Shown: one piece after another, positions 5,727 to 25,365 of the stretch
How positions within the stretch are numbered: position 1 is the first letter of the stretch
How the letters are laid out: every line of letters starts with the position of its first letter
NCBI GenBank assembly: GCA_051872395.1
Contig: JBJEDU010000029.1
Coordinates: 9,358-73,357, forward strand
Reading direction: 5' to 3'
Length of the DNA: 64,000 nt
Source of the DNA: Bacilli bacterium
GTDB taxonomy: Bacteria > Bacillota_I > Bacilli_A > RFN20 > CAG-826
Notes under the pieces: model-generated
The model's database searches: none
Seen by the model: only the letters and a program-made list of their open reading frames with translations
Told to the model about the DNA's origin: nothing
Program-made: the position numbers and the translations under genes

Positions 5727-6455
5727 TTACTTTAATGCTTCTTGCACTTCTTTATAATCAATATTTTCAAATGTTATCGTATCAATTTTGCCCTTAATAG
5801 AATTTAATTCATCTTTATTTCTAATGGTCCAAACATTGACGAAATGATGTTTTTGATATCTTCTAACCGTTTTATCATTTACTAATAATTGGTCGATATC
5901 AATTGAATTAAAAAGTGGTCTAAATAACATTGTCCATTTCTTTTTACTCCACACTAATAAGGAAGTAATGACTTTATGTTTTCTTACTCTCGCTAACACT
6001 CTTGGATCAAAAGAAATGAACATATATTTTGATTTATCTTTTATTTTATTTTTAATAAATTCATTAAATACTTTTGCTAAAGATTTGTAGTTAAGGTCCA
6101 CGACTTTAAGTTCGATAACTAAAGGCACTCTTTCATTAATTAAAGATAAGACTTCTTCTAATAAAGGAACTTTTCCACCATCTAAAAGTTTGTAATTATC
6201 ACAAATTTCTTGATATGTTAATTTCTCGATTTGTCCTTGTTTACCAGTTGTGCGAAGTAAATCATCATCGTGACAAACCACTAATAAGTTATCTTTTGTT
6301 AAATGAATATCGAGCTCAATCGCTAAATCATGTTTAATCGCGTTATTAAAAGCCTTCAATCCATTTTCTGTAAATTTTTCATTGTGTAATCCTCGATGCG
6401 CAATTCCTTTTAAAAAACGAGGATCAATTTTATTAATTAGTTTATCTTTTTTCAT
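5727..6455 (-). CDS. Glycerophosphodiester phosphodiesterase (GDPD family)
   Basis: IAHRGLHNE...ENGLKAFNNAIKHDLAIELDIHLTKDNLLVVCHDDDL is the GP-PDE catalytic signature (HR(G) and E/D/H residues). Confidence 0.75.
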   Translation of the reverse strand: MKKDKLINKIDPRFLKGIAHRGLHNEKFTENGLKAFNNAIKHDLAIELDIHLTKDNLLVVCHDDDLLRTTGKQGQIEKLTYQEICDNYKLLDGGKVPLLEEVLSLINERVPLVIELKVVDLNYKSLAKVFNEFIKNKIKDKSKYMFISFDPRVLARVRKHKVITSLLVWSKKKWTMLFRPLFNSIDIDQLLVNDKTVRRYQKHHFVNVWTIRNKDELNSIKGKIDTITFENIDYKEVQEALK

Positions 6456-6457
6456 AA

Positions 6458-7903
6458 TTAATTATCGACATCTAACGCTTCTAAACCTTTTTTAATCTTA
6501 TTCTTATCAACTTTGATATTTTTAACAAAGAAGAAAACGATAAGAGAAAGGACTAAACAAATAATGGAATAAATTGGAAGGAAAGAAAAATCAAAATTAA
6601 ATTGAGGTAAAAGAAGAACACCTAATAAACATGGTGTAATAGTTTGGGCTGCCATGGAGGAAGCATAATATAAACCAGTGAATTTACCAATCTTTTTACT
6701 TGAACATAATTCAACAACCATTGGGAATGAATTTACATGAACTAAGCTCATGCCAAATCCTTTGATGAACCAAACAATATATAAATATGCAGGGAAAACA
6801 TTAAATCCATTTGAAGAAGCGCTAAGAGGGATAAATGAGGAACACAAAATCCAAATTAATGTACCTAAAATCGCTAAAGAGAGACCAGAAAACACTGTCC
6901 ATTTTCTTCCAATTTTAGAGGATAAAATACCGCCAATTAAAAATCCGATAACACTTCCAACACCACCAACAATCGTGTTTATCATTGAAGAAGAATGTTC
7001 GCATCCTAAATAGAAAATTGTATAGTTGCCAATAAATGTCGATACAGCGTTATCGCTCATAAACCATAAAAACTCTGCCGCTAAAATTAAAATCAACATA
7101 ATTTTATTAGCTTTACTCATTGGTTTCTCTTCATCTTTAGAAACATCATCTTCTACTGCAGCGAGTTTCTCACCGAGTTCCATATCGCCTCTAACTTCTT
7201 CAGCGATTTTATTTTCATTAACATTGAAGAACAAAACTAAAGCACTTACTAAAATTAAAACACTAGCTACTAAGAATGGACCTTCAATAAGCCAAATATT
7301 TGATGTCCCATTTACCCAATATTCGCTAGTGTTTTCACTTGTACCAAGATACTTTGAAAAACTAAAGAAAATTGCTAAAACTGTTGCAAAAGCCCCACCA
7401 ATATATCCCATTATGTTAATAATTCCGTTAGCTTTACTACGAAGTGGTTTAGGTGTCATATCAGGCATTAACGCTACAGCAGGATTACGATACATCATTG
7501 CAAAGAAAACAACAATTGCCATCACAACGAATGTTCCAAATAAATTATGGAAATGGAAAAAGACAGGAATAAATGGGAAAGCGATTGCACATACAAATGT
7601 CCCTACTAAAATAAATGGCATTCTTTTACCAATTTTTGTATGTGTCCTATCACTTAATTTTCCAAATATCGGAAGCATAATTAAGGCTGCAAGATTATCA
7701 AAAGCCATCACAATACCAACCAGATATTGTACTGACCTTTCATCAGTAGTGTGAAATACTTCTTTAAATAGTTCAGTAAGCATTGTTGGACACCAGCTAT
7801 CATAGACTTGCCATAATAACAAAATGCCAAAAAACGCAAACCCAATTAAACAAGTTCTTTTGTAATTGAGTTTCAAAGGTGAAGAATTTGATTTACTATT
7901 CAT
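6458..7903 (-). CDS. MFS transporter of the glycoside-pentoside-hexuronide:cation symporter (GPH) type, with an acidic central loop
   Basis: About 12 TM helices. The GPH-like motif LSDRTHTKIGKRMPFIL matches D-R-T...G-R-R-P. The RBS GAGGAAAA precedes the ATG at 7903. Confidence 0.65.
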   Translation of the reverse strand: MNSKSNSSPLKLNYKRTCLIGFAFFGILLLWQVYDSWCPTMLTELFKEVFHTTDERSVQYLVGIVMAFDNLAALIMLPIFGKLSDRTHTKIGKRMPFILVGTFVCAIAFPFIPVFFHFHNLFGTFVVMAIVVFFAMMYRNPAVALMPDMTPKPLRSKANGIINIMGYIGGAFATVLAIFFSFSKYLGTSENTSEYWVNGTSNIWLIEGPFLVASVLILVSALVLFFNVNENKIAEEVRGDMELGEKLAAVEDDVSKDEEKPMSKANKIMLILILAAEFLWFMSDNAVSTFIGNYTIFYLGCEHSSSMINTIVGGVGSVIGFLIGGILSSKIGRKWTVFSGLSLAILGTLIWILCSSFIPLSASSNGFNVFPAYLYIVWFIKGFGMSLVHVNSFPMVVELCSSKKIGKFTGLYYASSMAAQTITPCLLGVLLLPQFNFDFSFLPIYSIICLVLSLIVFFFVKNIKVDKNKIKKGLEALDVDN

Positions 7904-8060: not shown

Positions 8061-9731
8061 TTAATCAAAATAACTATTCGCGCCGGTCACTATCTCATCA
8101 TTATGACTAATCGATAGATTATAAACATAGTTACCGATATTTAATAAAGAAGAATTATCAGTTAAATATTCATTATCGATATAAACATTATTAATATTAA
8201 TATCTTTAACAAAATGCTCTTCAGTATTATTAAATCCACTTCTATTATCTAAACATCCACTTATATTGATTAAAGATTTAGAAGCATTAGATAAAACTAA
8301 AACATTATTAATATAAATAGATTCAATAAAGCCCAAAGACGTTGTCGCGTGATTAGTGGACCAAGTTGAAGAATATAAATTTTGAATATCAATTAGATAA
8401 GGAACTCCATCTCCACACCCCATTCTTGCATTTTCAATAGTGATGTTTTCAAAATGGACATTTTTAATGTATGCATTATTTGCATTATGAATTGAGATAA
8501 CTGCTTTATGGTAGTTAAATAATACTGTTATATCTTTAAAATAAATGTCTTCAAATACTAAACCAACGGTCTCATATCCAAGTTCCATTGACTGGGCTAA
8601 ATCAGTCCATATTTGACATTTTTCAAATACGATATTTTTTGTGGTTCCTTGTTCGTTTCTATTAGACCATTTAGGATAATTTTTAACAACTAGAGAATCA
8701 TCCCAAGTTCTAACAAAAGAATTTTTGCAAATGACATTTTGACAAGATTGAACGCTAACGCCATCACCATTGCTTCGCGAAGAAATTATTTTTATATCTT
8801 CTAATAAAACTTGATTAGAAAAATATAAATTATAGCACCAGCCAGCAGGATCGAGAGTGGTTATTCCTTTAAAAATAATATTGCTACAGTAATTAAATTC
8901 AAAAGGAATCAACTTACTTCCAGTTTCACCATTCCTTTCAAAATCCGCACCTAAAACAATTCCATCACCAATAATTTCAATATTTGAGGCGGAATTTGCA
9001 ATAAAACCAGCTTTTAAAACTGCGCCTTTTTCTAAAATTACTGTCGTATTGCTACTTAATGAAATTAGATTATTACTACCAATATAAGAAGAATTATTTT
9101 TATCATGAATACCTTTTTCAAAGACAATCGTTTTATTATTTGAAAAAGATGAAGCATATCCATCTATAGGATTAACAAATAGATGAAAAGAATAGTTTTT
9201 TAAAAAAGAAATAGTATATTGACCTAATTCAGAAATTTTAAAATTGACCACTCTTCGATTATAATCTTTTTCATGTTCGATATGTTTATCGCCGGGCATA
9301 ACTCTCGTAGTCAATTCTTTAAATGCGAAATTGGTTTGTAAAGATAAATTTATTTCACCATCTAAATTAATAATAGCAACTCCGGCTTCAACAAATATTT
9401 GAGGGTTGGCACTCCAAACTCGATTAGGGTTTGTGTTAGTGTGATAAACCGGTATTTCTTTGTCTCCGCAAAAAAGACGAAATGAAGAAGCATAAATGTC
9501 TTCATTTAATTTATTTGAATAATCTAGTTGCCCTTTAATGCTTCCTTTATTAGAAAAATAATCTTCTTCTAATATATAAAATCCATCATCATCTTTTTCA
9601 TATTCTTTTTCTATAATACTTTCATATTCATTAGATGAAGATTGAGAAGAAAAGTCATTATTTACTGTACAGGCAGATAAAAATACTATTAAAAAAGAAA
9701 TCAAAAAAATTCTAAATTTCTTCATTTTCAA
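8061..9731 (-). CDS. Surface lipoprotein with a right-handed beta-helix (pectate-lyase fold, GH28-like) putative glycoside hydrolase domain
   Basis: Lipoprotein signal MKMKKFRIFLISFLIVFLSAC. The motif block SNGDGVSVQSC...VRTWDDSLVVKN...WTDLAQSMELGYET resembles GH28 NTDGI/GDDC boxes. It is paralogous to the 21589..24213 protein. The start overlaps the upstream gene's stop. Confidence 0.6.
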   Translation of the reverse strand: MKMKKFRIFLISFLIVFLSACTVNNDFSSQSSSNEYESIIEKEYEKDDDGFYILEEDYFSNKGSIKGQLDYSNKLNEDIYASSFRLFCGDKEIPVYHTNTNPNRVWSANPQIFVEAGVAIINLDGEINLSLQTNFAFKELTTRVMPGDKHIEHEKDYNRRVVNFKISELGQYTISFLKNYSFHLFVNPIDGYASSFSNNKTIVFEKGIHDKNNSSYIGSNNLISLSSNTTVILEKGAVLKAGFIANSASNIEIIGDGIVLGADFERNGETGSKLIPFEFNYCSNIIFKGITTLDPAGWCYNLYFSNQVLLEDIKIISSRSNGDGVSVQSCQNVICKNSFVRTWDDSLVVKNYPKWSNRNEQGTTKNIVFEKCQIWTDLAQSMELGYETVGLVFEDIYFKDITVLFNYHKAVISIHNANNAYIKNVHFENITIENARMGCGDGVPYLIDIQNLYSSTWSTNHATTSLGFIESIYINNVLVLSNASKSLINISGCLDNRSGFNNTEEHFVKDININNVYIDNEYLTDNSSLLNIGNYVYNLSISHNDEIVTGANSYFD

Positions 9732-11503
9732 AAAAGTGCCTTTTCATCATCCTTAGAAAATAAATATATAGATGATTCATCAAAAGATAATGAGATTTCT
9801 TGATTATCCACTACCTTATTTTTAATTGAAGTTGAAATAATTAATTTTTCTTTCTTATTTATTAACGAACAATAAATCAAGCAATCTTCTCCAAGATGTT
9901 CACATAAATCGACCCTTGATTTAATCGATTGTTCTTTATATAAATAATCATTTTCTAAATATATAGCTTTAGGTCTAATACCTAAATATACTTCTTTATT
10001 TATATATTCATCCTTGATTTTATTTTTTAAATCTTTTGAAGTAACAAATTTTATTTCATCAAATAATAGGTTTTTATCTTCATCGATTTTAGCATCGATA
10101 AAATTCATTGGTGGGGTTCCAATAAAACCAGCGACAAATTTATTAACTGGGTGAAGAAATAATTCATCTGGACTACTAACTTGTTGAATATATCCATCTT
10201 TCATAACAACAATTTTATCCCCCATTGTCATCGCTTCAATTTGATCATGGGTAACATAGATAAAGACAGTATTTAATTTTTTATGTAAATTAGTAATCTC
10301 ACTTCTCATTTGTCCGCGCATTTTAGCGTCAAGATTTGAAAGTGGTTCATCTAAAAGAAATACTTTTGGTTTTCTAACAATCGCTCTTCCTAACGCTACG
10401 CGTTGACGTTGACCACCTGATAAATTTTTAGGGTATGAATCAAGTCTATCTTTTAATCCAATAATTTCAGCGGCAGAATTTACTATCTCGTTGATTTCTT
10501 TTTTACGATTTTTTCGGTATTTTAAACTAAAATAATACTCTAATGGAATTCTTTTATTAGTTAGAGGAAAAGTAATATTTTTCTTAACAGTTAGATGAGG
10601 ATATAAAGCATAATTTTGAAAAACCATTGCAACATTTCTATCTTTTGGGTCGACGTCATTTAATATTTCATCATCGATATAAAGTTCTCCATCAGATATT
10701 TCTTCAAGTCCGGCAATCATTCTTAACATCGTTGATTTTCCACATCCAGAAGGACCGACAAAGACAACAAATTCATTATCTTTAATTTCTAAATTGAAAT
10801 CATGAACTGCTTCAAATCCATTAGGATATATTTTTTTAACATGTTCAATTTTAATATGTGTATTATTTTTTAACACTAAAGGTAATAGTTCTTTAATGCT
10901 TTTTAATTTATAGTTAGCCTTTTCATATAGGTCAGCACCATTAATACCACATGATTTAATCTTTGCGTTTTTCGCAGCGTCTATTCCCGCTTGTGCGTCT
11001 TCCACTACTAAAACTTCATCTCTTTTTAAAAATAGTTTTCTTCTCGCTTTAGTAAAAACTTCTGGGTGAGGTTTAGAATGCTTGATTAAATTTCCATCGA
11101 TAATTACATCAAACATATCTTTAATTTCTAATTGTTCCAATATTTTAATGGTATTTTTACTAGAAGAGCCAATCGCTAATTTAATATTGTTTTCTTTCAA
11201 AGTTTTTAATACTTCAAAAACATTAGGTAATAAATCTTTTTTAGTTAATGTGGATAAAGATTCGACATATATTTTATTTTTCTCGCTTGCGAGTTTATTC
11301 TTTTCATCTTGACTATATTTCTTATTAGCTTTTTCTAAAATAATTTCTAAAGAATCCATTCTAGAAACGCCTCTTAAACGATTATTTATTTCTTCATCAA
11401 AATAAATGTTTTCTTTATCAGCAATTACTTTCCAAGCATTATAGTGAAGTGTATCAGTCGTTACTAATACACCATCAAGATCAAATATAATTCCTTTAAT
11501 CAT
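9728..11503 (-). CDS. Single-ORF fusion of an N-terminal beta-phosphoglucomutase (HAD superfamily, ~215 aa) and a C-terminal sugar ABC-transporter ATP-binding protein (MsmK/MalK-like, ~370 aa)
   Basis: The N-terminus MIKGIIFDLDGVLVTTD is HAD motif I; ...GSSSKN... and ...EDAQAGIDAAKNA complete the beta-PGM pattern. The C-terminal half has Walker A (GPSGCGKST), the LSGGQRQRVALGRA signature and Walker B (VFLLDEPLSNLD), plus a MalK-type regulatory tail. There is no internal stop or frameshift. Confidence 0.8.
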   Translation of the reverse strand: MIKGIIFDLDGVLVTTDTLHYNAWKVIADKENIYFDEEINNRLRGVSRMDSLEIILEKANKKYSQDEKNKLASEKNKIYVESLSTLTKKDLLPNVFEVLKTLKENNIKLAIGSSSKNTIKILEQLEIKDMFDVIIDGNLIKHSKPHPEVFTKARRKLFLKRDEVLVVEDAQAGIDAAKNAKIKSCGINGADLYEKANYKLKSIKELLPLVLKNNTHIKIEHVKKIYPNGFEAVHDFNLEIKDNEFVVFVGPSGCGKSTMLRMIAGLEEISDGELYIDDEILNDVDPKDRNVAMVFQNYALYPHLTVKKNITFPLTNKRIPLEYYFSLKYRKNRKKEINEIVNSAAEIIGLKDRLDSYPKNLSGGQRQRVALGRAIVRKPKVFLLDEPLSNLDAKMRGQMRSEITNLHKKLNTVFIYVTHDQIEAMTMGDKIVVMKDGYIQQVSSPDELFLHPVNKFVAGFIGTPPMNFIDAKIDEDKNLLFDEIKFVTSKDLKNKIKDEYINKEVYLGIRPKAIYLENDYLYKEQSIKSRVDLCEHLGEDCLIYCSLINKKEKLIISTSIKNKVVDNQEISLSFDESSIYLFSKDDEKALF

Positions 11504-13569
11504 CTTATTTCCTCCATCTTAACTTCGTTTTTGTTTATTAAAATTTGATATTTTTTGTTTCTAAAATGAATTTTAAATGATAATTCTTTCCATCGATGAA
11601 TCAATTTTGGCTTAAACGCTAAATTGTTGTTTTCGTCAATATAAATACCGGCATAACCACGAATTACATCTAAATACGCTCCAGCGTTACTAGCAGGATG
11701 AGTGCCGCCTATATAAATTCCTCCAGCGTATATTTTCTGTTTTGTTCCTAAATCAATTGAAGATGATTGACGGAACATTTTATATGATGTTTTGTAATCT
11801 TTTGAATATAAAGCACATAAAGAATACATTGAACTCGATAATGAACTTCCATGTTCCGTATATGGCAAATAGAAATCGTAATTATTTTTAATCAAAGAAG
11901 AAGAAAAATCATTATTAAAAAGGGCTAACGCTGCAATAACATCAGCTTGCTTAATGACTCTAGTTTTACTAGCAACCCCGTTTTTAGCGCCCCAATATTC
12001 ATTTGGGTGGCGAAGTCGACTTCGTACCGTATCAACTTTAACGTCTTCGAGTTTATAGTAACCATCAAATTGTTCAATTACACCATTATGATTCGCTTTA
12101 GGAATATAAATCTTATCAATGAATTGTTTAACTTCATCTTTAAATTCATCGTTATCATCAAGATATTTAACTAATGACTCACTCGCCTTTTTTATCGAAT
12201 AATTTGTAAAGAAATTATCATTAACTCTTTCATGATATTCATCTGGACCAATAACATCATAGAAATGATAATAGCCATCAATTTCTTTTTTATAACTCAT
12301 ATAAAATTTGATGCACTCTTTCATCATTTCTAGCCCACCCAAAGAGAGCAAAGAATAATCATTAGTGTATTCTAAATAAGTCGCTAAAGCGTTGACCATA
12401 TCCGCGGATGTATGAATTTGTTTTTCATTGAAATAAGTTCTGATTGGTTCATTTGTAAAAACATCAGTGACGTTATATTTTGAACACATCTCTTTTCCTT
12501 CTTGTGATTCCCAAGGATAAAACGCTCCATCATAATGATGTTTTTTGGCATTTTCTTTAGCGTCAGACAATGTGTTGATTCGATATAATAAATTATTTCT
12601 CGCAATATTAGGATTAGTAAAAATATAAAATGGGTTTAAAAATATTTCAGTATCCCAAAATATTGCGCCTTTATATGTTTGACCACTAATACCTCTTGCA
12701 GCGATGCTATTTTTATTATCATCGTTTGATAATATCAGTAGTTGATATACGCTATAATCTAGTTCATCTTGAGCCGATTTATCACCTTTTATATGTATTT
12801 TGGCATTTTGAAAATTTTCATAAAATAATTTTGAATGATCATTTTTATATTGAAGATATATTTTTTTATTAATCTTAGATGTTTCTCTATTTATTTTATT
12901 AGGATAAATTTTTACTAAGACATAAATATTTCTAATTTCGCCTTCTTTTAAAAATGAGGACAATTGGTACATTGTTTCATTTTTTATAACATCAAATTTA
13001 TTAAATTTATAATTCGCAACTAAAGAGATGGTTTTATTTTCATTGGTCACCCCACTAAAAGCAATGCGATTATTATAAATTTTATAATTTGACTTTTTAA
13101 AATGGGGACCATTAATATCCCAAATTAAAGGATCTAATCCAATATCTATCACAACATTTTGTTCTTTCTTAGCCCTTATTTTAAAGTGAAGCAATAAAGA
13201 ATCATCGCTATGAATAGATACGAATCTTTCACTACAAATTTCTAAAGTGTTAAATTCTGTTTTTCTTTTAAAAATTGCTTTTTCAATATCTAGTGATACT
13301 TGGTGTTTACTAGCGGTATTAACCAAAAGTGAACAATCTTCAAAATTATTTTTAACATGAATATAAAAAGGGTTTGGAAGATTTATGGTTTCTCTCCATT
13401 TATCTTTGTAACGGTCATAAAAACCAGCAACATTTAAAGCGACAAGATTATCTTTTTTATATTCTTCTAAAGTTCCGCGATATCCATATTTACCATTGCC
13501 AAGTAAAAACATGTTACCAAAAGAGGTAATATTTTCTAATGAATATCCTTTTTTAATTAATGTTTTCAT
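11500..13569 (-). CDS. Glycoside hydrolase family 65 alpha-glucoside phosphorylase (maltose/kojibiose/nigerose-phosphorylase family); specificity unknown
   Basis: The protein is 689 aa. The architecture is the GH65 N-terminal beta-sandwich, central (alpha/alpha)6 and C-terminal domain. It is paralogous to the adjacent 749-aa GH65 ORF and translationally coupled to neighbours (ATGA overlaps). Confidence 0.7.
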   Translation of the reverse strand: MKTLIKKGYSLENITSFGNMFLLGNGKYGYRGTLEEYKKDNLVALNVAGFYDRYKDKWRETINLPNPFYIHVKNNFEDCSLLVNTASKHQVSLDIEKAIFKRKTEFNTLEICSERFVSIHSDDSLLLHFKIRAKKEQNVVIDIGLDPLIWDINGPHFKKSNYKIYNNRIAFSGVTNENKTISLVANYKFNKFDVIKNETMYQLSSFLKEGEIRNIYVLVKIYPNKINRETSKINKKIYLQYKNDHSKLFYENFQNAKIHIKGDKSAQDELDYSVYQLLILSNDDNKNSIAARGISGQTYKGAIFWDTEIFLNPFYIFTNPNIARNNLLYRINTLSDAKENAKKHHYDGAFYPWESQEGKEMCSKYNVTDVFTNEPIRTYFNEKQIHTSADMVNALATYLEYTNDYSLLSLGGLEMMKECIKFYMSYKKEIDGYYHFYDVIGPDEYHERVNDNFFTNYSIKKASESLVKYLDDNDEFKDEVKQFIDKIYIPKANHNGVIEQFDGYYKLEDVKVDTVRSRLRHPNEYWGAKNGVASKTRVIKQADVIAALALFNNDFSSSLIKNNYDFYLPYTEHGSSLSSSMYSLCALYSKDYKTSYKMFRQSSSIDLGTKQKIYAGGIYIGGTHPASNAGAYLDVIRGYAGIYIDENNNLAFKPKLIHRWKELSFKIHFRNKKYQILINKNEVKMEEIR

Positions 13570-15815
13570 CTTTTAATAATTGTCACACCTTCGTTAATAT
13601 TTTTAAGATGATTATAAATTTTCATCTTTATTTTTTTATTACCATTATTTGTAATCTTTAATTCATTTTTATCAATGAAGAAATTAATCAAATTACCTTG
13701 AATATTTAAATTAAATGAATATGACTTCCATTTTTTAGGAAGAGTTGGAGCGATGGATAACACTTTTTTATCGCTTCTAAATCCTCCAAAACCATAGACT
13801 ATATTTAACCACGCTGCAGCAATAGAGGTCATATGAATGCCTTCTTTTGTATTGTTATTATAATCATCCAAATCGAGTCTAGTCGCGTAGCGGAAAAAAT
13901 TATACGCTTCTTTTTCTTTCCCAATTTGATTAGCGATAACGCTATGAACAGATGGGGATAAAGATGATTCATGAATACAAAGCGGTTCGTAATATTCATA
14001 ATTGGCTTTTAATTGATCAAAAGTAAAATCTTGATTATATAAAAGCATAAACATCAAGACGTCAGGTTGCTTAATCATGTCATTTCGATAAATTCGATCG
14101 TATGACCAATTTGAATAAAGTGGAAAATCTTTATCGGGGATTTTATCTACATCGATATGAGGCAATTTAAAAAATCCATCGTGTTGCTCAAAGAGTTTCG
14201 TTTTTTCATCATAGATGATAAGCATATGATCTCGAGCTTTTTTTATTTTTGAATAAAATTTATTATTAATTTCACATTTGTTTTCAATATCTATAAAATT
14301 ATACGATTTATCTTTTTTTATTTTTAACAAATAATCAAATGTCTTTTTCGCCATGTAATTAGTGTACGTATTATGATTGACCATTAACTGAAATTCATCT
14401 GGTCCCATAACCCCATAAAATCCAAAATATTTTTTATCTTTAGAATATTCTCCTCTCGATAATAAAAATTTAGATATTTCAATCAATAATTCAATTCCAT
14501 AATTTTGCATAAAATCATGGTCATTATATACATTCATATAATGTTCAATCGCATAGGAAACCGCAGTGGAAGGTTGGAATTGACAAGAGGCATGTTGCCA
14601 TAAAGTACAAGCTTCTTCCCCAGTTCTAGTCGCAATTGGAAAACACGCGCCTTCACAATCTAAATCTTTTGCTCTTTTCTTTGCTTCCTCTAACGTATTA
14701 TATCTAAACAACAATAAATCTTTGCTTGCCTCTTTATTATTAAATAAATAATAAGGAAGACAATAGGTTTCACTATCCCAAAAAGCATGGCCTGAATAAG
14801 CTTCTCCTGTCAAACCTTTTGCCCCAATATTGTTATCTTTTTCAATTCCATGATATGTTTGTTCTAATTGAAATAAGCAAAATCTAATCCCTTGTTGATT
14901 GACTTTATCGCCATTAATGACAATGTCGTTATGTTTATAGACGTTAAAGAAATATTTTTTATTATTTTGATAAATAGAATCAAATCCTTTTTTAATAAGT
15001 GACTCTAATTCATTTTGAGTTTCTAATTTTAATTTAACTGGGTCAATTTTTACTTTTGAAGCATTATTTATTACTAATCGGTCAATAATTTTCTTCTTTT
15101 CATTAATTTTGATTTTACTTGAAATTATTAATTGATCATCAATGAATTTAATTTCTTTATTATCTAAATTAGTTACATGCATTGAAGTCGCTAAATATTG
15201 TTCAGTTGTTAATGTTTGACACACTAAAGTAGGAATATTTAAATCTTTATCAATGACCTTATAATATCTATTTTTACCCCAGTGCTTTATTGAAGCATCT
15301 AAAATAAAATCGACATCTAAATATAATTCTTTATCGCTTGAAATAGTTAATCTAACCGCACCTTCATGAACGTCAGTCATCGATAATAATCTTTCAAAGC
15401 GAATATTAATTTTATTATCTTTGACTAACCAAACAAATTCTCTAATATATTTACCATCTCTAAAATCAATTTCTCTTCGAAAGTTAGCGAAATTAGATTT
15501 ATTTAAATCTAATATTTCATCATCTAATTTAATTCTAATTTTTACCCAGTTCGTCGAATTAATGGTGAAATGAGTTCTTTTTGCAATGCCTTTATAGGAT
15601 TGATGAATTTCTTCACCATATTCAATAATTCCATTATAATAAGTACCAATTAATTGATTTGAAGAATAATCTTCATCAAAAAATCCACGAATTCCTGAAT
15701 ATTCATTAGCCAAAGAAAATAATGATTCTGAGACCATATCTCTATCTTTATAAAATCCTTTTTCTATCAATTTAAACGGATGAACTTTTAAATATTGTTT
15801 TTTTATTTTAGCCAT
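13566..15815 (-). CDS. Glycoside hydrolase family 65 phosphorylase (second paralogue)
   Basis: The protein is 749 aa. GH65-like conserved blocks (...GAKGLTGEAYSGHAFWDSE..., ...DPLCIHESSLSP...) are shared with the 689-aa paralogue. Confidence 0.7.
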   Translation of the reverse strand: MAKIKKQYLKVHPFKLIEKGFYKDRDMVSESLFSLANEYSGIRGFFDEDYSSNQLIGTYYNGIIEYGEEIHQSYKGIAKRTHFTINSTNWVKIRIKLDDEILDLNKSNFANFRREIDFRDGKYIREFVWLVKDNKINIRFERLLSMTDVHEGAVRLTISSDKELYLDVDFILDASIKHWGKNRYYKVIDKDLNIPTLVCQTLTTEQYLATSMHVTNLDNKEIKFIDDQLIISSKIKINEKKKIIDRLVINNASKVKIDPVKLKLETQNELESLIKKGFDSIYQNNKKYFFNVYKHNDIVINGDKVNQQGIRFCLFQLEQTYHGIEKDNNIGAKGLTGEAYSGHAFWDSETYCLPYYLFNNKEASKDLLLFRYNTLEEAKKRAKDLDCEGACFPIATRTGEEACTLWQHASCQFQPSTAVSYAIEHYMNVYNDHDFMQNYGIELLIEISKFLLSRGEYSKDKKYFGFYGVMGPDEFQLMVNHNTYTNYMAKKTFDYLLKIKKDKSYNFIDIENKCEINNKFYSKIKKARDHMLIIYDEKTKLFEQHDGFFKLPHIDVDKIPDKDFPLYSNWSYDRIYRNDMIKQPDVLMFMLLYNQDFTFDQLKANYEYYEPLCIHESSLSPSVHSVIANQIGKEKEAYNFFRYATRLDLDDYNNNTKEGIHMTSIAAAWLNIVYGFGGFRSDKKVLSIAPTLPKKWKSYSFNLNIQGNLINFFIDKNELKITNNGNKKIKMKIYNHLKNINEGVTIIKR

Positions 15816-15817
15816 AA

Positions 15818-16738
15818 TTATTCTTTAATTCCTCCAGATGTCGCGCCACCTAAAATTTGTTTTTGGAAGATAATAAACAAAATGATTTGAGGGATCATAG
15901 ATATAACTAATAAAAGAAGGAAATCACTCGTATCAAATGTTGGGGTTGTCATCGTTCCTAAATCATAAATGTAAACCATAATGGTCGCTAATGATTCATT
16001 TTGTAATACTAGTTTTGGAAGAAGAAAGTCACAATATGCAGCGGTCATTGTAAAAATTGCAACAACACCAATAATAGACTTATTTAATGGTACAATGACT
16101 TTAAAGAATACTTTAATATCACCAAGACCGTCGATTCGAGCGGCCTCAATAAAACTTTTTGGTGTCTTTTCAAAAGAATTCTTTAAAAGCATGTAATAAT
16201 ATGCATTAGCCCCAAAAGTTAAACAAAGTGGTAAATAGGAATTAATAAGTCCCAATTTAGTAATTTCCATAAATAATGGCACGATTGATAATGCAGAAGG
16301 TATCATATAGCCTAATAAAATTAAAATGTTGATTACCTTATAACCAACAGGTTTTAAAATTCCAACAACGTACGCTAAAAGGCCATTAAAAACAACAGAA
16401 CAAATAATCGCCCCAATAACAACAATCAAAGTGTTACCATAATATTTTAATAAATCCATCTTTTGCCACACTTTAAATATTTTTGTAATATCAAAAACTT
16501 GAGGAAAGAGATGATATTTTGTTGAATTGATTTCTTGAATAGTTTTAAAAGAAGTAATAAATAACCAAATAATTGGCACTAAAGCCACTAAAACAAACAA
16601 AACTAAAATGGTAATAAATATCGCATAAATTATCTTATTATGAAGTTTTCGATAATCAGAAAAATTTAATACACCATTTAATTTATCTTTTAAATGTTTA
16701 TTATTATATTCTAAGGTTTTAGTTTTTCTCTTTTTCAT
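15818..16738 (-). CDS. Carbohydrate ABC transporter permease (MalG/UgpE-like)
   Basis: Six TM helices and an EAA-like loop (FIEAARIDGLGDIKVFFKVIVPL). Confidence 0.8.
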   Translation of the reverse strand: MKKRKTKTLEYNNKHLKDKLNGVLNFSDYRKLHNKIIYAIFITILVLFVLVALVPIIWLFITSFKTIQEINSTKYHLFPQVFDITKIFKVWQKMDLLKYYGNTLIVVIGAIICSVVFNGLLAYVVGILKPVGYKVINILILLGYMIPSALSIVPLFMEITKLGLINSYLPLCLTFGANAYYYMLLKNSFEKTPKSFIEAARIDGLGDIKVFFKVIVPLNKSIIGVVAIFTMTAAYCDFLLPKLVLQNESLATIMVYIYDLGTMTTPTFDTSDFLLLLVISMIPQIILFIIFQKQILGGATSGGIKE

Positions 16739-17637
16739 CTAATTTTCTCCTTAGAATTATTAAATCTATTAGTAAATAAGAAATAAATAACTGTAATTAA
16801 AATAATAATTAAAGCAAGAATAACACTTGTTGCTGCACTTTTTGTATCTTCCATATTTGTGAAATATAAATATGATAATTGCATTAATGACATCGCGTCT
16901 TTTGATTTGTTTCCAGCGATAATCATCGGCTCATAAAATACTTGGAAGACAGATATAATTTGTAAGATTAATAAAGTTAAAATTGTCGGCTTCATTAAAG
17001 GCATCGTAATCTTAAAAAATCTTTGAAGAGGACTGGCCCCATCAATACGACTAGCTTCATATAAATTAGAATCAATATCTTGGAAATTTGACATGTAAAT
17101 TAAAGATGTGCCTCCAAATCCCTTCCAAGTCATCGCGACAACAATAAGAGGAATAACGATATCAGAATTGCTTCTAAAATTCATTCTTTCCAAACCAAAT
17201 ATCGATCTTATAACATTAAGTATCGAATACGCTTCATCTCCATATATATTTTGAAATAAGAAGACAACAGCGATACCGCTCAACATACAAGGAATATATA
17301 AACAAACTCTAAAAAATCCTTTAAGGTGGATAACTTCACTAAGAATAAATCCAACAATCATTGGAATAAAAAATCCAATAACAATCGACCATAAAATGTA
17401 TTTAAAAGTATTGAAAAATGCTGAAACAAAATAATTATCTTTGAATACCGCTTGATAATTAGCGAAACCAACAAATTTATCCATATCATAATTAGAGAAA
17501 AATGAAATGAATATATTTTTAATAAGCGGATACCAAACAAAGAATACGAAAAGAAGAAGCGTTGGAAGCATGATTAGCCATGCGACAACATTTTTCTTAA
17601 TTTTAGAAATTATTTTCTTCTTTTTCTTTATATTCAT
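16735..17637 (-). CDS. Carbohydrate ABC transporter permease (MalF/UgpA-like)
   Basis: Six TM helices and an EAA loop (YEASRIDGASPLQRFFKITMPL). Overlaps the downstream gene by 4 nt. Confidence 0.8.
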   Translation of the reverse strand: MNIKKKKKIISKIKKNVVAWLIMLPTLLLFVFFVWYPLIKNIFISFFSNYDMDKFVGFANYQAVFKDNYFVSAFFNTFKYILWSIVIGFFIPMIVGFILSEVIHLKGFFRVCLYIPCMLSGIAVVFLFQNIYGDEAYSILNVIRSIFGLERMNFRSNSDIVIPLIVVAMTWKGFGGTSLIYMSNFQDIDSNLYEASRIDGASPLQRFFKITMPLMKPTILTLLILQIISVFQVFYEPMIIAGNKSKDAMSLMQLSYLYFTNMEDTKSAATSVILALIIILITVIYFLFTNRFNNSKEKIR

Positions 17638-17640
17638 AAA

Positions 17641-19041
17641 TTATTTATTGTTGTATGCTTCATCTAATTTTTCTTGATATTGGGCATTACAAGTCGTAAG
17701 AATTGACAATGTGTTGCAAGTTGAAGGATTATCAAATACTTGCGCGATTGCGTTATCTAATATTTCATACATTTCTTGTGGTAAATATTCAACCTCAGGA
17801 TGTTTATTTGAATCTATTGAATCGAAAAATTCATTATAATATCTCATATCAACATTGATATATTCTTCTAATAATTCATTTTTAAATTCTACATATTCAT
17901 CATTAATCCACGGTGATATTTCTTTCATGATTGGTTGATTTTTTCTTTTTGCTACTTCATAGCCATATCTCATCGCTTCTTTAGAAATATCATTAATGTT
18001 TGGGGATCTACCAATGTAATCAAAGAATTTCAAAACGCCTTTAACTTGTTCATCAGTCGCATTTTTTGCAAAGACAAATGGAGTTCCACCATATAAAGAA
18101 TATCTTTTATTACCATTGGCGCTTGGCATTGGAACAAAAGCAAAATCATTCATATCTAAGTGCGCTTGCGTGGAAGCAAGTTTAATAACATCGTTTCCCA
18201 CAACCGCCATCGCGACCTGATCACCAATTTTATTATACCAACCTTCATACTCTACCGATTTTTGATTGAGCAATAATTCTTCGTTTTTAAGTTCTTTAAT
18301 CCAATCGAGTGCGGCAACTGCTTCCTCACAGTTTAAGTTAGCTTTGATTTTTCCATTTTCAATCTTCGTTAAAGAAGCACCAAAATTCCAAGCATAATTA
18401 GAGAATTGCCAACCACCATTTTTATTTGTTGAGCAAATATAAATAGCTTTTGTGTCGCTAGATTCAGTTATTTCTCTTCCAGCTTCAATAATTTCATCAA
18501 AGGTTGTTGGATATAAAGGATTATTGTCACTATCATAAAGAATATATTTATTATCAGAATCTTTTTCAATTAATCCATTATCATAAAATGTTTTTAAATT
18601 AATCAATAAACCAAGACCATAGCCATCACGAGGAATGCCATATATTTCATCATTGAAAGTTAAAGCATCTTTCATTTCAGAGTCCATCTTATCAAGCCAG
18701 CCGACTTCTTCTAATTCACTTTGAATAGAACGAATGAAGCCTGAATTAACTAATGATTCTGGTTCAGTAAACCACGTTTGAAAAACAGTAGGAAGGGTGC
18801 CACTTCTGGCTCTTGCAATAATTGTGTCTTTTGAATATTCATAGTGGTCTGCAACAATCTCATATTGAGGAAAATCTCTTTCAAAATTTGCTTTCCAAGC
18901 AGTATACATGCTGACATCTTCTCGATCGGTTGAAAGTGGCCAAAACCCAATCTTTAATTGGATTTTATTATTTTTATTACAACCAACAAGAAGTGGAATA
19001 GAAAGCATTGTTACACAAAACAATAACGATTTATTTTTCAT
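17641..19041 (-). CDS. Extracellular sugar-binding lipoprotein of the ABC transporter (family 1 SBP)
   Basis: Signal and lipobox MKNKSLLFCVTMLSIPLLVGC. The size and composition are typical of MalE-like SBPs. I place the start at the ATG at 19041, which is preceded by GGAGGA; the track ORF begins at a TTG at 19056. Confidence 0.75.
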   Translation of the reverse strand: MKNKSLLFCVTMLSIPLLVGCNKNNKIQLKIGFWPLSTDREDVSMYTAWKANFERDFPQYEIVADHYEYSKDTIIARARSGTLPTVFQTWFTEPESLVNSGFIRSIQSELEEVGWLDKMDSEMKDALTFNDEIYGIPRDGYGLGLLINLKTFYDNGLIEKDSDNKYILYDSDNNPLYPTTFDEIIEAGREITESSDTKAIYICSTNKNGGWQFSNYAWNFGASLTKIENGKIKANLNCEEAVAALDWIKELKNEELLLNQKSVEYEGWYNKIGDQVAMAVVGNDVIKLASTQAHLDMNDFAFVPMPSANGNKRYSLYGGTPFVFAKNATDEQVKGVLKFFDYIGRSPNINDISKEAMRYGYEVAKRKNQPIMKEISPWINDEYVEFKNELLEEYINVDMRYYNEFFDSIDSNKHPEVEYLPQEMYEILDNAIAQVFDNPSTCNTLSILTTCNAQYQEKLDEAYNNK

Positions 19042-19063
19042 TAGATTATCCTCCAATTGTTTA

Positions 19064-19091
19064 ATGTAGGGGGAAAAGTCCCCCTACATTA
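19064..19091 (-). promoter_or_regulatory. Intercistronic GC-rich stem-loop between the 813-aa lipoprotein gene and the SBP gene (mRNA stabiliser or partial terminator)
   Basis: AATGTAGGGGG-aaaagt-CCCCCTACATT is an 11-bp perfect stem, exceptional in this AT-rich DNA. It sits 23 nt upstream of the SBP start. Confidence 0.5.
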
Positions 19092-19107
19092 TTAAATTTT
19101 AAAATTA

Positions 19108-21549
19108 TTAATACGCTGCTAATAAAGCACTATATGTATATGGAACATATGCTTTTGCAGCAAAAGTGATGTTAGCACTATTAGTTACACCATCAGCGAA
19201 ATGAATATGTAAAAATCCAGCAGCATTATAAGATGTTTCACCTTCAAATGTTTTTACAAGATCAATTTTTAACACTGTTGGGTTTTCTGAATCGGTTGAA
19301 ATTTCTTGATTCATATCTAAAGCGTTGCCATCAGTATCGTATACTTGACCAGCATTGACTGCTGGAGTAATTGAGCCTTCAATACGAAGTGAGGCAATAG
19401 TCGCTCCTGCTTCATCAGCAACTAAAGATAATTCAAGAACTTTAGCCATATTATCTTTTTGATTATACGCGCCAATATAAGAATATACTTCTAATTTAGC
19501 GGAATTTGGATTAGCGAGTTCAACATTATCAATTCTTGACCATTCACTGATGTAATATCTTGTATATGACATTTCAGTGATGGTTCCAGTAGAACCTTCA
19601 AATCCACCAGTATGTAAATCTGCATCAATTGTGCCAAAATTAGTGGCACTAATATCGATAGAAATTGTTAATGGATTTTCTTCATCAAAAGTTAATTCTT
19701 TTGAAATTGGATTTCCATCTAATCCAATTACTTTACTGTCTTTAAACCAGAATTCACCATTATCACAAGTAAATCTAAGCGAAGATAAATCTCCAGTACC
19801 TTTAATTGTAATATCAATTCTATAGGCATCTCCAATATAAATATATCCTCCATGAGCATAATTTGATAAATCAGGATTTGCATTTAATGGAATTGTTTCA
19901 GTTTGAACACCGACTGTGTCAGCAAAATAAATGCTATCAATTTCAACAGCGTTATTGAAATACATATCGATGAAATCATCATTTCCAATATCACTATTCA
20001 TTTCTTTTAAATCAATGATGTAATGAACAAATCCATCTTTTTGATATGGATAAGAGTCTAAATCAGTAGGAATGGATGATAAGCCTGGGCCTGCTAACCA
20101 ATCATGTGACCACATAGCGTTGCTGGCCGCACTGGCAAGTCTAAATCCTTCCATATTACCTTTTGCAACGATAACTAAATATCTTAATCCGCTGTGGACC
20201 GCAGTTCCGTTAGCTTCTTTTAAATTGACGTAACCACCTTCAGCAGGTTGAGCGATTTTAAGAGTACCATCACTAACTGAAATTAAATCTGGATTACTAT
20301 AAGATAAGGCAACACTAATACCATCTGGACTATAATCAGCGTTGCTGGCAGTATCCCAATCACCAGTAAATGATAATTGAGTTCTATTGAAGTTATCAAA
20401 GATAACTCTATTTTCAATGTCGATAAGTGGATATTCTTTTAAAGCTTCTTTATCTTTTAAATTAGTTAAGAAGATTTTTGAAATATTCAAATCAGTTGTG
20501 CTGGATAAAACTAATGTTTTTGTTAAAGATGTTTCAACAACAAAATCATAGAAAGCTCCGTTAACAGCGCCTAAATCAGTTGCAACATCGTTAACTTTTA
20601 AACCTTTTGAATCGCCGTTAGCTTCTAATACTAAATATTGATATTCAGCGTATTCATCTGGTAATTCAACTGTGTAACTACCGTTATTGATATTGACACC
20701 TTTGCGAACGATAAATCCGGTTGAATCACACCACCAAGGAGCAAATGTTGGGTTTGAATTAGTATTTGGATGATCAAAAACATCGATTGAAGTTTTTGTT
20801 GTACCTTTAACCATATAGACTTCACTTATTTCAATAACTTGAGATACTTCGGAACTATTTGAAGCATATAAATGGAAGCCTACCATTGTTTCTAATACTT
20901 TGATGCCACTTTTTGAACCATCTGGTAAAAGATATTCAGTAGTGTCATCTTCAATAGAGTTTCCTAAATCAATTTCAATATCTTGCCACTCTGTGGTTAA
21001 TTCCGCTACTTCTTCCATATCTGGATCAAAAGCATCTGCGAGATTGATTTCATATAAATTAACATTATCATCGCCACGTAAGCCAAGAATTAAGTCTTTA
21101 TTAGAAAGAGTGCCATTACCAACTTTTCTCATTCTAAAGCCAATAACATCTGGATGAGAACTTGTGAAAAGAGGGGCCGCAGTTTTATAAATTGATGCGT
21201 CCGCACTACATGGATAAACATCATGATCAGAATCTACCATTACGCGTAGTAAATTTTGATTCTCTGTTCCAATAAGTGTTCCTATTAATGTTTGAGATGA
21301 AAAGTCATCAACCATCAAGTCAAATTGCTCATTATATGTTCTTAAAAGAGCATCTTGGGCAACTTCACTAACGAATGGATCTTGGTGATCAACAACTACT
21401 TCTTGAGAGTCTCCGCCTTCACTAACATTTTCTGAAGTTTGTTCGCCACTATCTACAGTTTCTGAAGAAGAACTTGGTCCAGTTTTGTTACAACCAGTTA
21501 ATCCAAGGCCAACAAGAAGTAAAAGCGCAAGTAATTTTTTGTTTTTCAT
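19108..21549 (-). CDS. Large surface lipoprotein of unknown function (813 aa; Thr/Ser/Asp-rich, predicted beta-rich); possible glycan-binding or glycan-processing protein
   Basis: Lipoprotein signal MKNKKLLALLLLVGLGLTGC. It lies inside the GH65/ABC operon. I recognise no catalytic motif. Confidence 0.5.
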   Translation of the reverse strand: MKNKKLLALLLLVGLGLTGCNKTGPSSSSETVDSGEQTSENVSEGGDSQEVVVDHQDPFVSEVAQDALLRTYNEQFDLMVDDFSSQTLIGTLIGTENQNLLRVMVDSDHDVYPCSADASIYKTAAPLFTSSHPDVIGFRMRKVGNGTLSNKDLILGLRGDDNVNLYEINLADAFDPDMEEVAELTTEWQDIEIDLGNSIEDDTTEYLLPDGSKSGIKVLETMVGFHLYASNSSEVSQVIEISEVYMVKGTTKTSIDVFDHPNTNSNPTFAPWWCDSTGFIVRKGVNINNGSYTVELPDEYAEYQYLVLEANGDSKGLKVNDVATDLGAVNGAFYDFVVETSLTKTLVLSSTTDLNISKIFLTNLKDKEALKEYPLIDIENRVIFDNFNRTQLSFTGDWDTASNADYSPDGISVALSYSNPDLISVSDGTLKIAQPAEGGYVNLKEANGTAVHSGLRYLVIVAKGNMEGFRLASAASNAMWSHDWLAGPGLSSIPTDLDSYPYQKDGFVHYIIDLKEMNSDIGNDDFIDMYFNNAVEIDSIYFADTVGVQTETIPLNANPDLSNYAHGGYIYIGDAYRIDITIKGTGDLSSLRFTCDNGEFWFKDSKVIGLDGNPISKELTFDEENPLTISIDISATNFGTIDADLHTGGFEGSTGTITEMSYTRYYISEWSRIDNVELANPNSAKLEVYSYIGAYNQKDNMAKVLELSLVADEAGATIASLRIEGSITPAVNAGQVYDTDGNALDMNQEISTDSENPTVLKIDLVKTFEGETSYNAAGFLHIHFADGVTNSANITFAAKAYVPYTYSALLAAY

Positions 21550-21588
21550 AAACCAATCCTTTCTTAAAATTATATTAATTGTTTATGT

Positions 21589-24213: not shown

Positions 24214-24247
24214 TACTATTCCTCCACATATATTTTTTTACAATTTC

Positions 24248-24309
24248 ATTCTAACAATAAAAAAATCAAATAAAAAGTATAAGTTTATCGGTTAACAAAG
24301 GTTAACAAA
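24248..24309 (-). promoter_or_regulatory. Putative promoter of the ~16-kb glycan-utilisation operon (extended -10 TGTTAGAAT) with a tandem GGTTAACAAA x2 candidate operator
   Basis: On the minus strand, TGnTAGAAT is the reverse complement of 24248-24256. Two tandem 10-mers GGTTAACAAA (24290-24309), each containing the palindrome GTTAAC, lie 35-60 nt upstream of the -10 and 30 nt downstream of the LacI-family gene stop. Confidence 0.4.
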
Positions 24310-24339
24310 TAAAAATATTATTTTTTATAAAATAAAAGA

Positions 24340-25365
24340 TTAATTATATTTTTTTGTGGAATTTCTAATAACTAGCTCTGTTGGAACTTCAATTATTCGA
24401 TGTTCGATATTTTCGTTTTCAATTTCTTGTTTTAAAGTTTCCATTACTATTCTTCCTTTTTCTTCGATGTTTTGTCTTACTGTTGTCAAAGAAGGAAAAA
24501 CATATGTAACTTCTTTTATATCATCAAAACCGATGATGCTTAAATCATCTGGTATTTTCTTTCCTTTTAATTCATATTTATGGGTAATTCCGATAGCGAT
24601 AACATCCGCGCTACACACAATCGCGGTAACCTTATTATCTTCCATTATTTTATCCGCTACCGCTAAACCACCCTCAAAATCAGGATAGGAGATATATAAT
24701 AAATCATCTTCAACCTCAATACCATATTCTTTCAATGCATTTGAATAGCCTTCATATCTTCTTTTATCTAATTCTGATCTTGAAGCCGTTCCAACATAGC
24801 CTATCTTTCGATGGCCAAGTTCTAATAAATATTTTGTAGATTTATACATTCCACCTTTATCATCACTTCTAATATTTGTGTATTTAGAAAATTCTTCTGC
24901 GTAGACATCAATAAATATAAGAGGCATACGAAGTGATTCAACTTTAAAAGCTTCTTCAGTTGGGAATTTTCCAAGCATAATAATCGCATCAAAGTTACGA
25001 CTTAAAGCCCAGGAAATGAATTCATCTTGATTTTTATAGCCAAGCACTAAATCGTAACCAGAATCACGATTATTTTTTTCGATAGATGCAATAAATTCCA
25101 TATAGAAGGGATTTAATAATAAATTTGATGAATTATTATCGTTAGAAATAGGTAAAAATAATCCAATTAATCGACTTCTACCAGATGATAATCCTCTTGC
25201 GTTGACATCTGGCACATATCCTGTCTTTTCAATTTCATCCAAAATCTTTTGTCTAGTCGCTAAAGACATTTTGTTATATCTTCCAGTAACAACATAACTC
25301 ACTGTCGCAGGAGAAACATTCAAAGTTTTGGCAATTGTATAAATACTGACTTTTTTCTTTTCCAT
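24340..25365 (-). CDS. LacI-family transcriptional regulator
   Basis: N-terminal HTH VSIYTIAKTLNVSPATVSYVVTG followed by a periplasmic-binding-protein-like sugar-binding domain; 341 aa. Confidence 0.85.
   Translation of the reverse strand: MEKKKVSIYTIAKTLNVSPATVSYVVTGRYNKMSLATRQKILDEIEKTGYVPDVNARGLSSGRSRLIGLFLPISNDNNSSNLLLNPFYMEFIASIEKNNRDSGYDLVLGYKNQDEFISWALSRNFDAIIMLGKFPTEEAFKVESLRMPLIFIDVYAEEFSKYTNIRSDDKGGMYKSTKYLLELGHRKIGYVGTASRSELDKRRYEGYSNALKEYGIEVEDDLLYISYPDFEGGLAVADKIMEDNKVTAIVCSADVIAIGITHKYELKGKKIPDDLSIIGFDDIKEVTYVFPSLTTVRQNIEEKGRIVMETLKQEIENENIEHRIIEVPTELVIRNSTKKYN

Follow-up and report, generated by a model that had tools for sequence, protein, structure and literature searches.

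This locus raises the question of whether an enzyme of sugar-phosphate metabolism and the motor subunit of a sugar importer are made there as one protein. The DNA analysed, referred to below as the window, is a stretch of 64,000 nucleotides from an uncultured Bacilli bacterium (contig JBJEDU010000029.1), and it holds an open reading frame (ORF) of 591 amino acids (aa) in which a beta-phosphoglucomutase (beta-PGM) is followed directly by an MsmK-type ATP-binding cassette (ABC) ATPase. An earlier note on the sequence had described a continuous frame with both parts complete, and this was confirmed by the ORF listing and by Pfam and NCBIfam matches. The junction, which the note had put at about 10850-10870, was found close by, at aa ~209-216 (10856-10879), and the gene lies on the minus strand, the note having named no strand. 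Based on the evidence below, the ORF at 9728..11503 is probably a true single gene for a bifunctional polypeptide of ~67 kDa, formed from two joined neighbour genes of an operon. Its parts are the following.

9728..11503, minus strand: fused ORF, 591 aa plus TGA stop, comprising beta-PGM, linker and MsmK-type ABC ATPase (from the ORF listing and an alignment to 117 fused homologues)
10880..11503, minus strand: beta-phosphoglucomutase half, aa 1-208, HAD core and four-helix cap (from TIGR01990, PDB matches and invariant residues)
10856..10879, minus strand: linker, aa 209-216, LVLKNNTH, containing the codon GTG210 (10874-10876); variable among homologues
9731..10855, minus strand: MsmK/MsmX/UgpC-type ABC importer ATPase half, aa 217-591, nucleotide-binding domain (NBD) and C-terminal OB/TOBE regulatory domain (from NF008653, PF00005, PF17912 and PDB matches)
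10520..10558, minus strand: 13-residue insertion IPLEYYFSLKYRK in the helical subdomain of the NBD, aa ~316-328 (from a gap in the alignment to 7x0q)
11511..11515, minus strand: Shine-Dalgarno (SD) sequence GGAGG, 7 nucleotides 5' of the ATG of the fused ORF

In the ORF listing of the window, the frame runs from an ATG start to a TGA stop with no interruption across 591 aa. An ATGA overlap joins its start to the stop codon of the GH65 gene that precedes it (11500..13569), and at its 3' end it runs with its stop into the start region of the lipoprotein gene that follows (8061..9731). Pfam domains were matched in both halves: HAD_2 at aa 5-186 (HAD_2/Hydrolase at aa 2-186), ABC_tran (PF00005) at aa 234-388 and OB_MalK (PF17912) at aa 462-513. 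An AlphaFold2 model of the fused protein had a mean predicted local distance difference test score (pLDDT) of 91.1 and a predicted template modelling score (pTM) of 0.74, with pLDDT 82-90 in the linker and no disordered segment, and comparison of its fold found no solved chain that spans both halves. A Mollicute origin with genetic code 4 was considered and rejected: the fused ORF ends in TGA, and the long ORFs are intact under table 11.

The N-terminal half has the features of a complete beta-PGM. It passed the beta-phosphoglucomutase equivalog model TIGR01990 (EC 5.4.2.6) at aa 2-187 with 236.5 bits against a cut-off of 189.4, and its top PDB sequence matches are beta-PGMs, namely 4gib (6.6e-48) and L. 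lactis 1lvh (4.8e-38). The HAD motifs are present as D8/D10 (motif I), S113 (motif II), the lysine K144 (motif III) and E168-D169 (motif IV, in the beta-PGM form VEDA); the first three had been noticed earlier from the sequence, and the DD given at that time for motif IV was wrong. In the alignment of 117 sequences D8, D10, T16, G45/S47/R48, S113, S115, N117, K144, E168 and D169 are invariant, and presumably the catalytic residues correspond to D8, D10, S114, K145, E169 and D170 of L. lactis. The cap domain is likewise of the beta-PGM kind, since the hinge residue T16 and the distal-phosphate residues G45-V46-S47-R48, S115 and N117 are all invariant in that alignment, and four cap helices lie at aa 17-85 in the AlphaFold2 model. 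Two GH65 genes directly upstream provide a context consistent with interconversion of beta-glucose-1-phosphate and glucose-6-phosphate by this half. L. lactis PgmB (1lvh/1o08) and C. difficile beta-PGM (4gib) share its HAD core, cap and catalytic residues; they are standalone soluble proteins of ~220 aa, whereas here the C-terminal helix continues into the NBD of an ABC protein. Among the 80 closest beta-PGM loci of a metagenome scan, three are fused, and the standalone enzymes are mostly 206-225 aa long, with few outliers, and end where the linker starts.

The C-terminal half is a complete importer ATPase. The Walker A, Q-loop, LSGGQ signature, Walker B, D-loop and H-loop motifs are all present, and Y226, Walker A 250-258, Q296, LSGGQ 361-365, D385/E386, the D-loop S389-D392 and H419 are invariant in the 117 sequences. 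Its PDB sequence matches include 7x0q (4.4e-114), MsmX (6yir) and MalK, with a further E-value of 2.5e-103, and in the AlphaFold2 model the ABC part fits MsmX/MalK-type folds with target-normalised TM-scores (TMt) of 0.83-0.93. The UgpC-subfamily model NF008653 was matched at aa 216-588 barely above its cut-off (433 bits against 432) and the MalK equivalog NF008233 remained below threshold (376 bits against 568), so the half is a broad UgpC-subfamily member and not MalK proper. Its NBD motifs and C-terminal OB/TOBE domain liken it to MsmX (B. subtilis, 6yir), Clo1313_2554 (7x0q), MsmK and the MalK-type CUT1 ATPases, from which it differs by the 216-aa N-terminal extension and the 13-aa insertion in the helical subdomain. 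A standalone subunit of this type has ~360-380 aa and begins at strand beta1; here 216 residues precede beta1. In an exhaustive HMMER scan against 1.84 billion representatives clustered at 50% identity, residue 3-4 of standalone MsmK aligned with residue 216-217 of the query, so that the linker ends exactly where a normal MsmK begins. The 13-aa insertion is extra relative to the solved MsmX-type ATPases, and the fused homologues conserve it (P320, F325 and K328, plus R330, K331 and R333, in the 117-sequence alignment); it also occurs in the unfused MsmK of a related locus, L085, and is absent from a second type of fusion represented by the protein P0166. MsmX and MsmK each serve several sugar importers. 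Two related loci, L083 and L168, encode further MsmK-like ATPases close by, which suggests that the fusion is dedicated to the importer of its own operon. As separate observations, MsmK-like ATPases enlarged to 465 and 551 aa were seen in L083 and L168, and many of the MsmK-like cluster representatives with 600-850 aa, such as P0168, P0171 and P0193, consist of a normal N-terminal ATPase and a C-terminal extension of 330-480 aa without Pfam match.

The same architecture was looked for in relatives and was found widely. A search of 5.8 billion proteins yielded at least 117 full-length fused homologues of 590-603 aa, which align over 100% of the length at 54-80% identity and stem from assemblies in ENA, Logan, JGI and NCBI; the cluster of CDD93930.1 (Coprobacillus sp. 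CAG:826) holds 99 member sequences on contigs of up to 1.2 Mb. Since the catalytic residues of both halves are invariant in the 117 sequences, both halves are under purifying selection. In the HMMER scan the fusion forms three clusters, P0164, P0166 and the partial P0238, and the remaining top matches are standalone MsmK-type proteins. A scan of a genome collection with the whole protein gave no fusion among 80 loci, its matches being dominated by generic ABC motifs such as DQIEAMTM. Among the lineages that keep the fusion, identity falls to about 45-54%. Another subtype of the fused protein (P0166, P0314 and P0316, 578-624 aa) lies in an operon of the same kind, with genes for a solute-binding protein, two permeases and two GH65 proteins (L170 10001-11857; L171 8020-9756); its ABC half ends in a TOBE_2 domain, is without the 13-aa insertion and clusters with unfused MsmK proteins of the generic kind. 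The fused clade belongs to uncultured, low-GC Bacilli, which are present in at least human-gut samples.

A long frame of this kind could be false, if a sequencing or assembly error had deleted a stop or shifted the frame, or it could be translated as two products. The former had been named in the earlier note as a refuting case, as had an internal start with a ribosome-binding site, and neither was borne out. Error has only the prior in its favour that contigs of metagenome-assembled genomes (MAGs) contain mistakes, and its probability is close to nil: the architecture recurs in more than 100 independent assemblies, which excludes an artefact, and the distinct homologues from the four sources have linkers that differ in sequence and length and are always in frame. 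Furthermore, the junction DNA was compared in ten fused loci (the window, L081-L083, L086, L087, L111 and L166-L168, the junction of L087 being that of L083), a locus-by-locus comparison used because SD statistics from naive first-start ORFs were too noisy. The same comparison bears on the proposal that an internal start, GTG210 in the window, gives rise to a separate ATPase, with the fusion functionally minor. This proposal draws on the public annotation of the contig, which begins a separate 382-aa 'ABC transporter ATP-binding protein' at GTG210 (MGM9873950.1, P0010), and on the presence of a Met within the linker in 39 of the 117 homologues, in some at the position where the ancestral MsmK starts. 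Against it, GGAGG or AAGGAGG(T) stands properly spaced before the ATG of the fused ORF in all ten loci, and where the ABC half begins, none of the ten has an SD sequence before an in-frame ATG, GTG or TTG, although strong SDs mark the real starts in these genomes. In contrast to the fused junctions, msmK of the unfused L085 has AAGGAGG-N8-ATG. One marginal SD-like match, GGTGA before TTG203 in L168, falls within the C-terminal helix of the beta-PGM. No SD was found before GTG210 in the window; this codon is not conserved, being GTT in L081 of the same subgroup, and L081 and L086 have no start-like codon at all among the 30 codons around the junction. Nor were promoter-like sites enriched at the locus, in a promoter/terminator scan that was uninformative (95 such sites against 113 expected). 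Translation as two products is thus given a very small probability, and a single full-length product appears best supported, since an SD stands at the fused ATG and neither an SD nor a conserved start at the junction. Even with some internal initiation the full-length protein would still be made, because there is no stop in frame. It was also observed that the start chosen for MGM9873950.1 cuts the fused gene in two, so that the beta-PGM half has no proper coding sequence in the record.

If one polypeptide is made, what would the tether do? In the mechanism proposed, an alpha-glucoside would be imported, cleaved by GH65 phosphorolysis and converted from beta-glucose-1-phosphate to glucose-6-phosphate. 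The C-terminal half would serve as nucleotide-binding subunit of the CUT1-type importer of the same operon, presumably as a homodimer as in MalK, and the N-terminal half would be an active beta-PGM acting on the beta-glucose-1-phosphate from the two GH65 phosphorylases. Dimerisation of the NBDs and docking on the permeases would then hold two beta-PGM domains at the cytoplasmic face per transporter. The benefit would be obligatory 1:1 co-expression, co-localisation and stoichiometric matching, without direct channelling or allosteric control; channelling between import and the beta-PGM is not expected because the GH65 step lies between them. Turnover of beta-PGM is faster than cycling of an ABC importer, and a pair of tethered mutase domains might plausibly match the rate of import. 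The earlier note had proposed that the fusion would physically couple energisation of import to phosphosugar metabolism, a reading that goes beyond what the comparisons support. A closer functional coupling has also been considered, in which the beta-PGM domain acts as a metabolite sensor as well, its cap motion on beta-glucose-1-phosphate, glucose-6-phosphate or beta-glucose-1,6-bisphosphate modulating NBD dimerisation or ATPase activity as a feedback brake on import, or in which it nucleates a membrane-bound GH65 metabolon. Retention of the fusion at such low identities and the second subtype in the same operon speak for this, as do a model confident through the linker and the fact that the short linker joins NBD strand beta1 directly, beside the adenine-stacking Y226. 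Accessory domains on NBD chains that could tie metabolic state to transport are known: the regulatory domain of MalK, C2 of MetN, ModC and the CBS domains of OpuA (OpuAA) are C-terminal ligand- or partner-binding domains without catalytic activity, whereas here the extra domain is N-terminal and a complete enzyme. Since all its catalytic residues are retained, the beta-PGM domain is taken to be primarily an enzyme. The anchor-to-anchor span across the linker is 27-38 residues in the 117 homologues, and this variation of ~11 residues between lineages is hard to square with a fixed allosteric geometry and speaks weakly against rigid coupling; the unfused L085 relative inside the fused clade is also weakly against. 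A sensor or metabolon role is therefore regarded as unlikely, although less so than separate translation of the ATPase; if it were true, the importer would be the first of the ABC kind to carry a pathway enzyme as regulatory module on its motor subunit.

How the fused gene arose can be reconstructed by comparison with unfused relatives. At L085 (730-830) the unfused state is seen, in which pgmB (211 aa) is followed by TAA TAA AGGAGG ACTGCTTAC and the ATG of msmK, in the same order and reading frame as in the fusion and flanked by the same GH65 C-terminus and GH28-like lipoprotein. Its MsmK, P0165, is the closest unfused one (64% identity); it differs by a further insertion within its C-terminal domain (438 aa), and between the two genes stand a pair of stop codons, a perfect SD and the ATG. 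If the stops were lost, a spacer of the L085 type would become a linker of about the observed length. By this comparison the fused gene most likely arose in frame from pgmB and msmK that already lay side by side: the pgmB stop and the intergenic SD were lost, in most lineages the ATG of msmK too, and the spacer became the short linker. In E. coli K-12 the genes ycjT (GH65 kojibiose phosphorylase), ycjU (beta-PGM) and ycjV (ABC ATPase) follow one another in a cluster with ycjNOP (PMC11543891). YcjU is 39% identical to the beta-PGM half and YcjV 52% to the ABC half, and the ycjU-ycjV spacer is 13 nucleotides. The ycj cluster is thus alike in its order of GH65, pgmB and MalK-type ATPase in a locus with a solute-binding protein and two permeases; it differs in that its genes are separate, that ycjV is a pseudogene in K-12 and that the other enzymes of the cluster are different, and the GH65 proteins of the window are only ~25% identical to YcjT. 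Because the E. coli cluster has the same order unfused, the adjacency of pgmB and msmK long predates the fusion, and because both L085 and E. coli keep the genes separate in that order, fusion driven by gene adjacency is the simpler account.

The number of fusion events depends on L085. In a neighbour-joining tree of the ABC halves, the unfused L085 sequence is sister to the six-member subgroup of the window (98% bootstrap), inside the fused clade (99%). With this topology, ((55 fused),((6 fused),unfused)), one fusion and one fission are as parsimonious as two fusions, and the L085 pair may be either a secondary gene fission or a sign of repeated fusion. A single fusion is weakly favoured by a His just before strand beta1 that is common to both fused groups.

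Several points besides the public annotation from GTG210 weigh against a single gene with a selected, bifunctional product. The nesting of unfused L085 within the fused clade implies that the fusion can be dispensed with, and is compatible with a near-neutral rather than an adaptive event. SD-independent internal initiation or proteolytic processing may occur and would be compatible with the sequence. The steric fit of the N-terminal 24-kDa domain with docking on the permeases is assumed, and all fused homologues come from uncultured organisms.

The fused gene belongs to a ten-gene glycan-utilisation locus (8061-25365, minus strand), whose other genes are listed here from the last gene upward.

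8061..9731, minus strand: GH28-like beta-helix lipoprotein, last gene of the locus
11500..13569, minus strand: GH65 phosphorylase, 689 aa (Pfam GH65 N, m and C domains; best PDB match 4ktp, 4e-101)
13566..15815, minus strand: GH65 phosphorylase, 749 aa (Pfam; best PDB match 6w0p 'kojibiose phosphorylase', 874.5 bits)
15818..17637, minus strand: two ABC permease genes, 306 and 300 aa, BPD_transp_1
17641..19056, minus strand: extracellular solute-binding protein, SBP_bac_1, 471 aa
19108-21549, minus strand: 813-aa predicted lipoprotein, signal peptide ...LGLTGC
21589-24213, minus strand: GH28-like beta-helix protein with F5/8 type C domain, 874 aa
24340-25365, minus strand: LacI regulator

Pfam annotation of this operon bore out the adjacency to GH65 phosphorylases and permeases that had been claimed from the sequence. 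The two permeases are the membrane partners that the ATPase half should energise, and since no other ABC ATPase was detectable in the 64-kb window, the ABC half is the only candidate motor for the importer of the operon. The 689-aa GH65 protein is predicted to be translationally coupled to the fusion through the ATGA overlap and to produce beta-glucose-1-phosphate, and the beta-PGM half appears to be the only enzyme present that is able to route this GH65 product into glycolysis. The PDB entry 4ktp is the 2-O-alpha-glucosylglycerol phosphorylase of B. selenitireducens; together with the match to 6w0p this suggests a substrate of the alpha-1,2-glucoside type for the locus.

The relatives that were inspected share the locus at ~54-74% identity and vary it in small ways, as L168 does. 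Its core order of solute-binding protein, two permeases, two GH65 proteins and fusion is kept in L081-L084, L166 and L167, and in L168 with a single GH65 gene. In every inspected locus the fused gene lies in the same core operon, in nine distinct contexts besides the window, including the divergent L170 and L171. The GH28-like lipoprotein holds the same last position in L081-L084, L166 and L167, and a protein of ~800-880 aa sits upstream of the gene for the solute-binding protein in L081-L084 and L166-L168, as does the 813-aa lipoprotein of the window. The latter gave no Pfam match and no PDB sequence match even at E<=1, and may be an undescribed glycan-binding or glycan-degrading protein. In the 51-nucleotide gap between its gene and that of the solute-binding protein lies a GC-rich hairpin with a perfect 13-bp stem, TAATGTAGGGGGAAAAGTCCCCCTACATTA (19062-19091), which may act as an internal attenuator or, by stabilising mRNA, adjust the stoichiometry of the subunits. 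Directly downstream (5727-7903, minus strand) are genes for a glycerophosphodiester phosphodiesterase (GDPD) and an MFS transporter; one may speculate that they act in the same pathway, for example in breakdown of glucosylated glycerol-phosphate polymers.

The earlier note had held the architecture to be undescribed. No paper describing a beta-PGM::MsmK fusion was found in the literature searched, the coverage of which was incomplete, and to that extent the statement stands; the architecture itself has already been deposited many times, for example as CDD93930.1 (Coprobacillus sp. CAG:826) and MBR0294482.1, under names that cover one half only ('beta-phosphoglucomutase', 'carbohydrate ABC transporter ATP-binding protein' or 'multiple sugar transport system ATP-binding protein'). 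Because the records name one half or split the gene at a non-conserved GTG, pathway reconstructions of these MAGs can miss the beta-PGM or the ATPase. A precedent is Acinetobacter MtlD (7ocn), a weak PDB match of the beta-PGM half, in which a HAD-family domain is likewise N-terminal to a partner of the same pathway; there the partner is a soluble mannitol-1-phosphate dehydrogenase and not a transporter subunit, and the HAD domain is a phosphatase.

If the fusion were merely a neutral by-product of operon compaction, its scientific yield would be small. The families of both halves are well understood and the pathway is a standard one; what is unusual is that a type I ABC importer has a cytosolic enzyme of the pathway joined covalently to its motor subunit. 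In conclusion, a clade of uncultured low-GC Bacilli has kept this link between enzyme and motor over long evolutionary times, and the occurrence of fused and unfused states in close relatives makes it a natural 'Rosetta-stone' case that can be used to probe the effect of tethering on flux and regulation.

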